NCBI GenBank assembly: GCA_965201115.1
Contig: OZ241745.1
Span: forward strand, 2,534,340-2,598,339
DNA length: 64,000 nucleotides
Direction of reading: 5' to 3'
Source: Alphaproteobacteria bacterium
GTDB taxonomy: Bacteria > Pseudomonadota > Alphaproteobacteria > UBA7887
Position numbers and translations under genes: made by a program. Every line of letters starts with the position of its first letter. The first letter of the stretch is position 1. The notes under the pieces were generated by a model, which was given only the letters and a program-made list of their open reading frames with translations, was not told where the DNA came from and ran no database searches. Shown piece after piece: positions 35,434 to 35,605 of this stretch.

Positions 35434-35471
35434 CCCCGGCGCGAGCGCCCATGCCGCGCCCCTCCCGCCGC

Positions 35472-35491
35472 GGGGGGGGGGGGGGGGGGGG
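35472..35491 (-). repeat. C20 homopolymer in the autotransporter leader (candidate slipped-strand switch)
   Basis: 20 G on the + strand, between the RBS-preceded ATG 35551 and the signal-peptide frame; the ORF frame has TAA at 35497-35499. Confidence 0.8.
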
Positions 35492-35596
35492 TACGTTTAT
35501 TTGTACGGCAAGCGCGGGCGCTAACCCTCGGTACGGACGGGGCATGGTCATGACGGAGCGCTCCTCGGCGGAAATGGACGCCACACGGATGTTGTC

Positions 35597-35605
35597 AATA
35601 TACCA
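35597..35605 (-). promoter_or_regulatory. Extended -10-like element upstream of the autotransporter
   Basis: Minus strand TG-G-TATATT, about 45 nt upstream of ATG 35551. Confidence 0.45.

Follow-up and report, generated by a model that had tools for sequence, protein, structure and literature searches.

The 64,000-nt window analyzed here (contig OZ241745.1 of an uncultured, sponge-associated alphaproteobacterium; 70.6% GC; all coordinates are positions in the window) carries on its minus strand the gene for a giant autotransporter whose leader contains an unbroken run of 20 cytosines. An initial annotation, made from the letters of the sequence, had proposed this run as a phase switch that is OFF in the assembly. 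The locus comprises the following features, of which the open reading frame (ORF) is the gene as called, SD1 and SD2 are two Shine-Dalgarno (SD) motifs, and ATG1 and ATG2 are the starts that follow them.

27766..35433, minus strand: autotransporter ORF, 2,555 codons from TTG, intact; beta-barrel at about 27832-28539, C-terminal Phe
35392..35472, minus strand: signal-peptide coding region RGGRGAAW-ALAPGLLLALALWAG-HAPA/Q, in the ORF frame, without a start codon of its own
35450..35466, minus strand: SD2 (GGGAGGGG, 35466-35459) and ATG2 (35452-35450), the internal start of the family
35472..35491, minus strand: poly-C tract, C20 (G20 on the plus strand), Pro in all frames
35492..35551, minus strand: leader ORF MTMPRPYRGLAPALAVQINV from ATG1, ATG plus 19 codons, continuing into the tract
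35497..35499, minus strand: TAA ending the autotransporter frame 5' of the tract
35561..35566, minus strand: SD1, GAGGAG, with a 9-nt spacer to ATG1 (ATG 35551)
35597..35605, minus strand: extended -10-like TGgTATATT, a candidate promoter read from the sequence, about 45 nt 5' of ATG1

The last 344 residues of the encoded protein match PF03797 at 4e-27 (96 bits; cutoff, 26) and TIGR01414 at 1.1e-22, and they supply the C-terminal 12-stranded beta-barrel translocator domain of a type Va autotransporter. When the full-length 2,555-aa protein was scanned against Pfam and NCBIfam, no family was returned, presumably because of composition filtering; automated annotation may miss the autotransporter domain in such giant repetitive proteins. 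The passenger, of about 2,200 aa, is repetitive and rich in Gly, Thr, and Val, with internal repeat units of about 81 to 83 aa, and had no match in Pfam. A sequence search of the PDB with the barrel also gave no match. The GC content at third codon positions (GC3) of the ORF is 0.86. At its N terminus, the n-, h-, and c-regions of a candidate signal peptide and the AxA/Q anchor lie in one frame, and 50 homologues conserve this region, yet there is no in-frame start as assembled. The gene caller placed the start at TTG 35433, inside the hydrophobic core, such that the called protein, P0001, begins MLLALALWAGHAPAQ. The product of initiation there, MLLALALWAGHAPA, would be without the Arg-containing n-region present in all homologues. 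For annotation, this means that gene callers truncate the gene to a TTG within the signal peptide that has no ribosome-binding site.

The tract consists of exactly 20 C (35491-35472), as the initial annotation stated, and PF03797 on the ORF bears out its description of the gene. For the whole window, the expected number of G/C runs of 20 or more is 7.5e-5 under an independent, identically distributed model and 6e-7 under a first-order Markov model; the next longest homopolymers are 12, 8, and 7 nt. The tract is therefore far longer than composition predicts, as is typical of the repeat in a contingency locus. Exactly G20, flanked on both sides, is found in Logan unitigs from two public sequencing runs, X1 and X2, at a depth of 24 to 72, although the assembly may itself have been built from these runs. 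A paralogue shares the upstream flank, CAAATAAACGTA. The start proposed for the leader was also found as described, with the SD, the 9-nt spacer, the ATG, and MTMPRPYRGLAPALAVQINV running into poly-Pro. The extended -10 is likewise present, as TGgTATATT at 35605-35597; its -35 is weak, and a scan with the sigma-70 consensus found no full site and none spanning the tract. The statements of the initial annotation about the sequence were all confirmed.

Two starts lie on either side of the tract, and as assembled neither reads the autotransporter. The distance from 35551 to 35433 is 118 nt, or 3n+1, so that C19 or C22 fuses the leader to the ORF and C20 or C21 does not; the frame arithmetic of the initial annotation, including its call of OFF at C20, is correct. 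A gain or loss of one unit thus alters the reading frame, a further property of contingency loci. The ORF frame is closed by the TAA at 35499-35497, after which it reads T-Y-P6-RGGRGAAWALAPG-LLLALALWAGHAPA/QTN, and between this TAA and TTG 35433 there is no ATG, GTG, or TTG in the ORF frame. TTG 35433 itself has no SD, in agreement with what had been claimed of it. The initial annotation had overlooked SD2 and ATG 35452, located 3' of the tract. ATG2 is in the same frame as ATG1 and in a different frame from the autotransporter ORF, and at C20 both starts read a junk frame of 564 codons. With ATG2 in the wrong frame and no start within the signal-peptide frame itself, the full pre-protein can be obtained only via ATG1 and the tract. 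Judged from these frames, this copy would be a simple ON/OFF switch of reading frame that stands at OFF in the assembly (C20) and, unlike most of its relatives, has no tract-independent start.

A homologue search with the N-terminal 420 residues as the query gave 51 homologues, 5 of which (P0010, P0020, P0021, P0024, and P0042) are encoded, like the window's protein, on one 3.67-Mb contig. The signal peptide M/V-S-x-R-...-LAPGLLLALAL-x-AGEAAA/QNVCRGG is common to nearly all homologues, and about one-quarter were called with an N-terminal extension that holds a proline run. The paralogue P0020, on the same chromosome, reads MTMPCSYRGFAPAPALAVQINV-P7-AAGERGVSARAFAAGLLL, ...GVSARAFAAGLLL: the MTMP...QINV leader seen here, fused in frame. 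At the DNA level, 40 loci from metagenome-assembled genomes (MAGs) of one project and from ENA assemblies were compared. A leader cassette was found in 19 distinct homologous loci from at least nine MAGs or assemblies, with the tract at the same leader position and 6 to 32 C in length, so the conservation of the tract in homologues that the initial annotation had wished to see checked was observed. The cassette begins with an SD-like motif (typically GGAGGAGAGAAGCC) and an ATG or GTG, which are present at all 19 tract-bearing loci. A leader of 16 to 60 nt follows, then poly-C of 6 to 32 nt, and then about 22 nt, typically GCACAGGCTTGAGGAGCGCGTC, that contain a second SD. The cassette ends with a start (ATG, GTG, or TTG) exactly 72 nt before the AxA/Q anchor and in frame with it (15 of the 19 tract-bearing loci; 17 of 21 family loci). 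Tract lengths are C30 (L001), C13 (L003), C11 (L005), C19 (L006), C16 (L007), C32 (L008), C12 (L009), C20 (L011), C8 (L013), C15 (L014), C23 (L015), C16 (L016), C9 (L021), C25 (L029), and C14 (L033), and the tracts of L004, L010, and L017 are decayed. Upstream of the leader ATG, L001 and L013 have TATAAG/TATAAT in a place comparable to that of the -10-like element here. Since the second start lies 3' of the tract, the tract would not be a simple ON/OFF switch in most family members, as far as their sequences indicate.

Parts of these loci are nearly identical DNA. The signal peptide and the cassette recur across L002 to L036 (OZ241870, OZ241901, OZ241350, OZ241357, OZ241369, OZ241738, and OZ243124) in chromosome-scale MAGs whose labels are Alphaproteobacteria and Gammaproteobacteria; a MAG labeled Nitrospirales has a variant, and all loci have about 66 to 74% GC. 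At least two of the genomes that hold them occur together in one host sample. The cassette is found across differently labeled MAGs either because it has spread horizontally among co-resident symbionts or because the taxonomic labels are coarse. In L037 to L040 (ENA ERZ25068385 and ERZ25070167), the gene order is mfd, two tandem autotransporter genes, each with a poly-C leader, and a tetratricopeptide repeat (TPR) gene. Public runs that contain the window's sequence all come from sponge or marine metagenomes, and MAGs labeled Alphaproteobacteria are the nearest genomes, in line with the environmental or symbiotic setting suggested initially. Two of these runs come from one host sample that also holds the locus of the sister MAG.

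The leaders of the family bear marks of being translated. In canonical leaders, both of the nonfused frames end at a TGA, one inside SD2 (cTTGAGGAG) and the other overlapping the main start (A/GTGA). Among the 19 loci, 7 of the 10 that are out of frame stop at those TGAs, as do 11 of 14 when orthologues are added. This placement of TGA in both alternative frames indicates that ribosomes arrive from ATG1 upstream. The relative L004 (P0012; 1,631 aa; PF03797) has GCG at the position of the internal start, and its tract, short and interrupted by T (CCCCCCTCCCCC), is in frame with ATG1. Since the internal start has been lost and the tract is in frame, ATG1 must be the only start of L004. A search for RNA among the public runs that contain the sequence identified none. 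The fused N terminus was considered as a form of the known extended signal peptide region (ESPR) and rejected for lack of a Pfam match; hmmscan (E of ≤10) of the fused N termini of P0003, P0020, and L001 found no ESPR.

Length polymorphism between orthologues, the third property of a contingency locus, was found for the family. Among orthologues with nearly identical flanks, L039 has C23 and L040 and L003 have C13; likewise, L037 has C19, L038 has C17, and L008 has C32. For the window locus itself, the only comparison is L001 (C30; 76% identical). All three phases are occupied among the 19 loci, with 9 to 10 fused, 4 in frame 1, and 5 in frame 2. In one family member (L012:782-1028; OZ243124.1, from the Nitrospirales-labeled MAG), poly-C is replaced by a perfect tandem repeat of 19 units of 13 nt (GTTTCTCTCTTAC), which occupies the leader region about 60 to 120 nt upstream of the start and signal peptide. 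Because this nontriplet repeat takes the place of poly-C, selection appears to favor mutability itself at the leader position. A second gene of the same kind, L018, is present in the Nitrospirales-labeled MAG. The comparative evidence supports the view that this is a hypermutable contingency tract. A scan of Joint Genome Institute (JGI) metagenomes for the locus-specific flank followed by C10 gave no match. A loose unitig end, GGGGAG-N6-GTGAGCGCGCGG.., was considered as a strain variant with an in-frame start, but it was indistinguishable from a paralogue and was not used.

We propose, at about even confidence, that C20 is the variable core of a leader cassette common to a large autotransporter family of high-GC, uncultured bacteria that live with sponges and that the length of the tract sets the frame of ribosomes that start at ATG1. 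Slipped-strand mispairing at replication would alter the tract length and hence the frame in which these ribosomes exit. The complete pre-protein, MTMPRPYRGLAPALAVQINV-P6-RGGRGAAWALAPGLLLALALWAGHAPA/QTN..., would be made only from ATG 35551 at tract lengths of 3n+1 (C19 or C22); at C20, both starts would read the junk frame, and the gene would be OFF. The proposal draws on the anatomy and frame arithmetic of the locus, the recurrence of the cassette in 19 loci, the length polymorphism between orthologues, and the relative L004, in which ATG1 is the sole start. Together with the occupation of all three phases, these observations lend support to the contingency locus of the initial annotation. 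Neither of the two outcomes that it had set against its proposal, reads uniformly showing 19 or 22 C and efficient initiation at TTG 35433, was found. The proposal presumes that the tract slips at a useful rate in this organism and does so reversibly, and that the ATG1-fused pre-protein is exported. The product would then be a surface adhesin, and its stochastic expression would be of consequence in the host.

More tentatively, and with less confidence than we have in a frame-setting tract, the cassette may act as a portable switch of translation with three states, of a previously undescribed kind. Depending on tract length, ribosomes from ATG1 would continue into the main frame as a fusion, terminate at the TGA within SD2, or terminate at the TGA overlapping the second start. 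Fusion would yield a pre-protein with an N-terminally extended signal peptide, and the stop at the second start would allow stop-start coupling. Three levels of expression could follow, possibly tuned by stalling on the 6 to 10 prolines that depends on elongation factor P (EF-P). The copy in the window would be derived from such a switch and retain only two of the states. If the three-state switch is real, many paralogues per genome and co-resident sponge symbionts would provide combinatorial surface variation in a mutualistic holobiont.

Several observations count against a frame switch at this locus. The share of fused loci (9 to 10 of 19) is not significantly greater than one-third (p = 0.06 to 0.15), and selection for the fused state thus has no statistical support. 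Unitigs span C13 at the sister locus L003; variants with C11, C12, and at least 25 C occur there in the same samples, each with flanking substitutions, and are alleles or paralogues and not proof of slippage. The public runs were read as Logan unitigs, which are split at the tract, show no gapped alignments, and are hard to separate from those of paralogues and other poly-G loci (summed depth of up to about 20,000). The OFF state depends on a single C of a 20-nt homopolymer in the consensus sequence of a MAG, where the count is uncertain by one C in either direction. Finally, the window's copy departs from the family design, with the segment from start to hydrophobic core 20 nt shorter than in L001, the canonical TGA stops missing, and 564 junk codons in their place, which looks more like damage. 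A recently broken copy would account for this last point: a deletion in the n-region would have put the internal start out of frame, leaving a young pseudogene in which the tract is a relic and its phase irrelevant. ATG2 indeed lies 52 nt before the anchor, in frame 1, instead of the family standard of 72 nt in frame; both starts lead into junk; and the genome holds at least five more paralogues. Against this, the ORF of 2,555 codons (7.7 kb) is otherwise intact and has normal GC3, no stop interrupts the frame between the 3' end of the tract and the signal peptide (P6-RGGRGAAWALAPG..), one slippage event would suffice for a strong SD and ATG to yield a complete pre-protein, and the ATG1-only architecture works in the intact relative L004. 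We consider a broken copy unlikely, though it is an explanation to be taken seriously. That the homopolymer was miscounted seems to us rather unlikely. In that case the true tract would be C19 or a mixture, the gene would be intact and expressed from ATG 35551, and OFF would be a consensus artifact. Long homopolymers are typical sites of indel error in long-read consensus sequences, the chromosome-scale MAG assemblies of the relatives stem from one project, and OFF and ON differ by a single C. The unitigs of X1 and X2 with exactly G20 and both flanks speak against a miscount, with the reservation already made about their source, and a miscount would alter the state of the switch and not its mechanism.

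The frame might also be corrected with no change in the DNA, by slippage of RNA polymerase or by +1 slippage of tRNA-Pro on CCC-C, in which case the tract would be a dimmer and not a heritable switch. Frameshifted genes can be rescued when transcription slips on a long homopolymer (review, PMC5009743; Citrobacter tssM, PMC4256274). The frame at this locus would be restored by precisely a +1 shift, and the leaders are unstructured (z = 0.07 to +2.6), leaving ribosomes unhindered. CCC-C is a context prone to +1 slippage. Most described cases of slippage rescue involve A/T runs, and the efficiency on C runs is uncertain. Such correction leaves the large heritable length differences between orthologues unexplained; it is compatible with DNA-level switching, to which it may add leaky expression, and as the sole explanation we give it a small chance. 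A role of the tract in transcription or in the mRNA, as a promoter spacer, an i-motif or G-quadruplex (G4), or a 5' untranslated region element that pairs with the G-rich SD2, is very improbable. In its favor, poly-C tracts serve such a purpose in Bordetella fim promoters (PMC1891110), and in most family members a start codon lies 3' of the tract. A promoter-spacer switch of the Bordetella fim or Neisseria opc type was rejected, since the tract is 3' of the conserved SD1 and ATG1 and about 105 nt downstream of TATATT, the only -10-like element; lengths of 20 to 32 nt are also unsuited to a 17-nt promoter spacer. A hairpin between poly-C and SD2 was likewise rejected: the leader RNAs fold no better than shuffled sequences (z = 0.07, +2.64, +2.62, and +1.30), and the tract is unpaired. 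The TGA stops in both alternative frames point instead to translation through the tract.

A tract that sets the frame of an autotransporter has precedents. In Neisseria meningitidis, poly-C in the coding sequences of the autotransporter genes nalP and mspA is a proven ON/OFF switch, established by immunoblotting and surveys of isolates; Neisseria tracts have 6 to 15 C, nalP is ON at 7, 10, or 13 C, and lengths vary between isolates (PMC3723659). The locus described here resembles nalP and mspA in that a classical autotransporter has poly-C near its 5' end and one phase gives the product. It differs in tract length (C20 here and up to C32 in the family), in the second SD and start and the separate leader cassette, which the Neisseria genes do not have, in that switching would follow here from comparison, and in its host, an uncultured sponge-associated bacterium and not a mucosal pathogen. 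In Bordetella pertussis, the most variable homopolymer tracts assayed are those of the autotransporter genes tcfA and bapC; Bordetella tracts are mostly 9 to 15 nt, and one assayed tract, upstream of its gene in the fimX promoter, affects transcript abundance (PMC1891110). Phase variability was deduced there by the comparative criterion also applied here, the polymorphism of orthologous tracts between close genomes (PMC1891110). Bordetella is also a high-GC proteobacterium with G/C homopolymers at autotransporter genes, whereas the tract here is inside a translated leader, between two starts. The polymorphic membrane proteins (Pmps) of Chlamydia are an expanded paralogous family of autotransporters in a host-associated bacterium, with poly-G tracts in some members; they belong to another phylum and another passenger type and are not known to have a dual-start leader cassette. 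Coupling of upstream ORFs (uORFs) through ATGA is matched by the canonical family leader, in which one alternative frame ends at a TGA that overlaps the main start. In contrast to uORF coupling, a hypermutable tract would here select among fusion, coupling, and early stop, and the stops involved are absent from the window's copy.

What appears to be new relative to these systems, judging from the loci compared, is the tract length, the dual-start poly-Pro cassette, the many paralogues per genome, and the setting in uncultured sponge-associated bacteria. A full-text literature search found no report of such tracts in sponge-associated uncultured bacteria. Contingency loci are familiar from textbooks as a feature of mucosal pathogens and commensals. 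If our proposal is correct, length-polymorphic tracts of C13 to C32 extend stochastic surface variation to marine animal-microbe symbioses and offer a handle on how symbionts vary the surface that they show to host, phage, or neighbors. In MAGs, a difference of one unit in such tracts decides whether a gene is called intact or a pseudogene.

Upstream of the leader, the intergenic region is filled by elements that resemble repetitive extragenic palindromic (REP) sequences.

35660..36300, no strand assigned: cluster of REP-like two-hairpin elements, core ACGTGCGGGCAGGATGCCCGCG...GGCCCCGCCTTCGGCGGGGTTGC, families D2, D6, and D11

The REP-like two-hairpin family (core ACGTGCGGGCAGGATGCCCGCGGTCCCGGGCCCCGCCTTCGGCGGGGTTGC) fills intergenic regions of the window with at least 18 copies, at 12191, 27677, 35662-36233, 37421-37645, 41111-41895, and 63205. 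Copies flank the autotransporter gene, directly downstream at 27677 and upstream at 35660-36300. Seven tandem units of 108 nt derived from REP elements (41061-41900) end in G12 (41887-41898), just beyond the 3' end of the minus-strand gene at 41915-43171. This G12 is the second-longest homopolymer in the window, where 0.02 to 0.3 would be expected by chance, and has no adjoining start codon or leader. Directly upstream of the autotransporter's REP cluster lies an Rpn/YhgA-like gene (36267-37430, minus strand; PF04754, Transposase_31, at 2e-23), and a TPR gene (26710-27477) adjoins the 3' end of the autotransporter gene.
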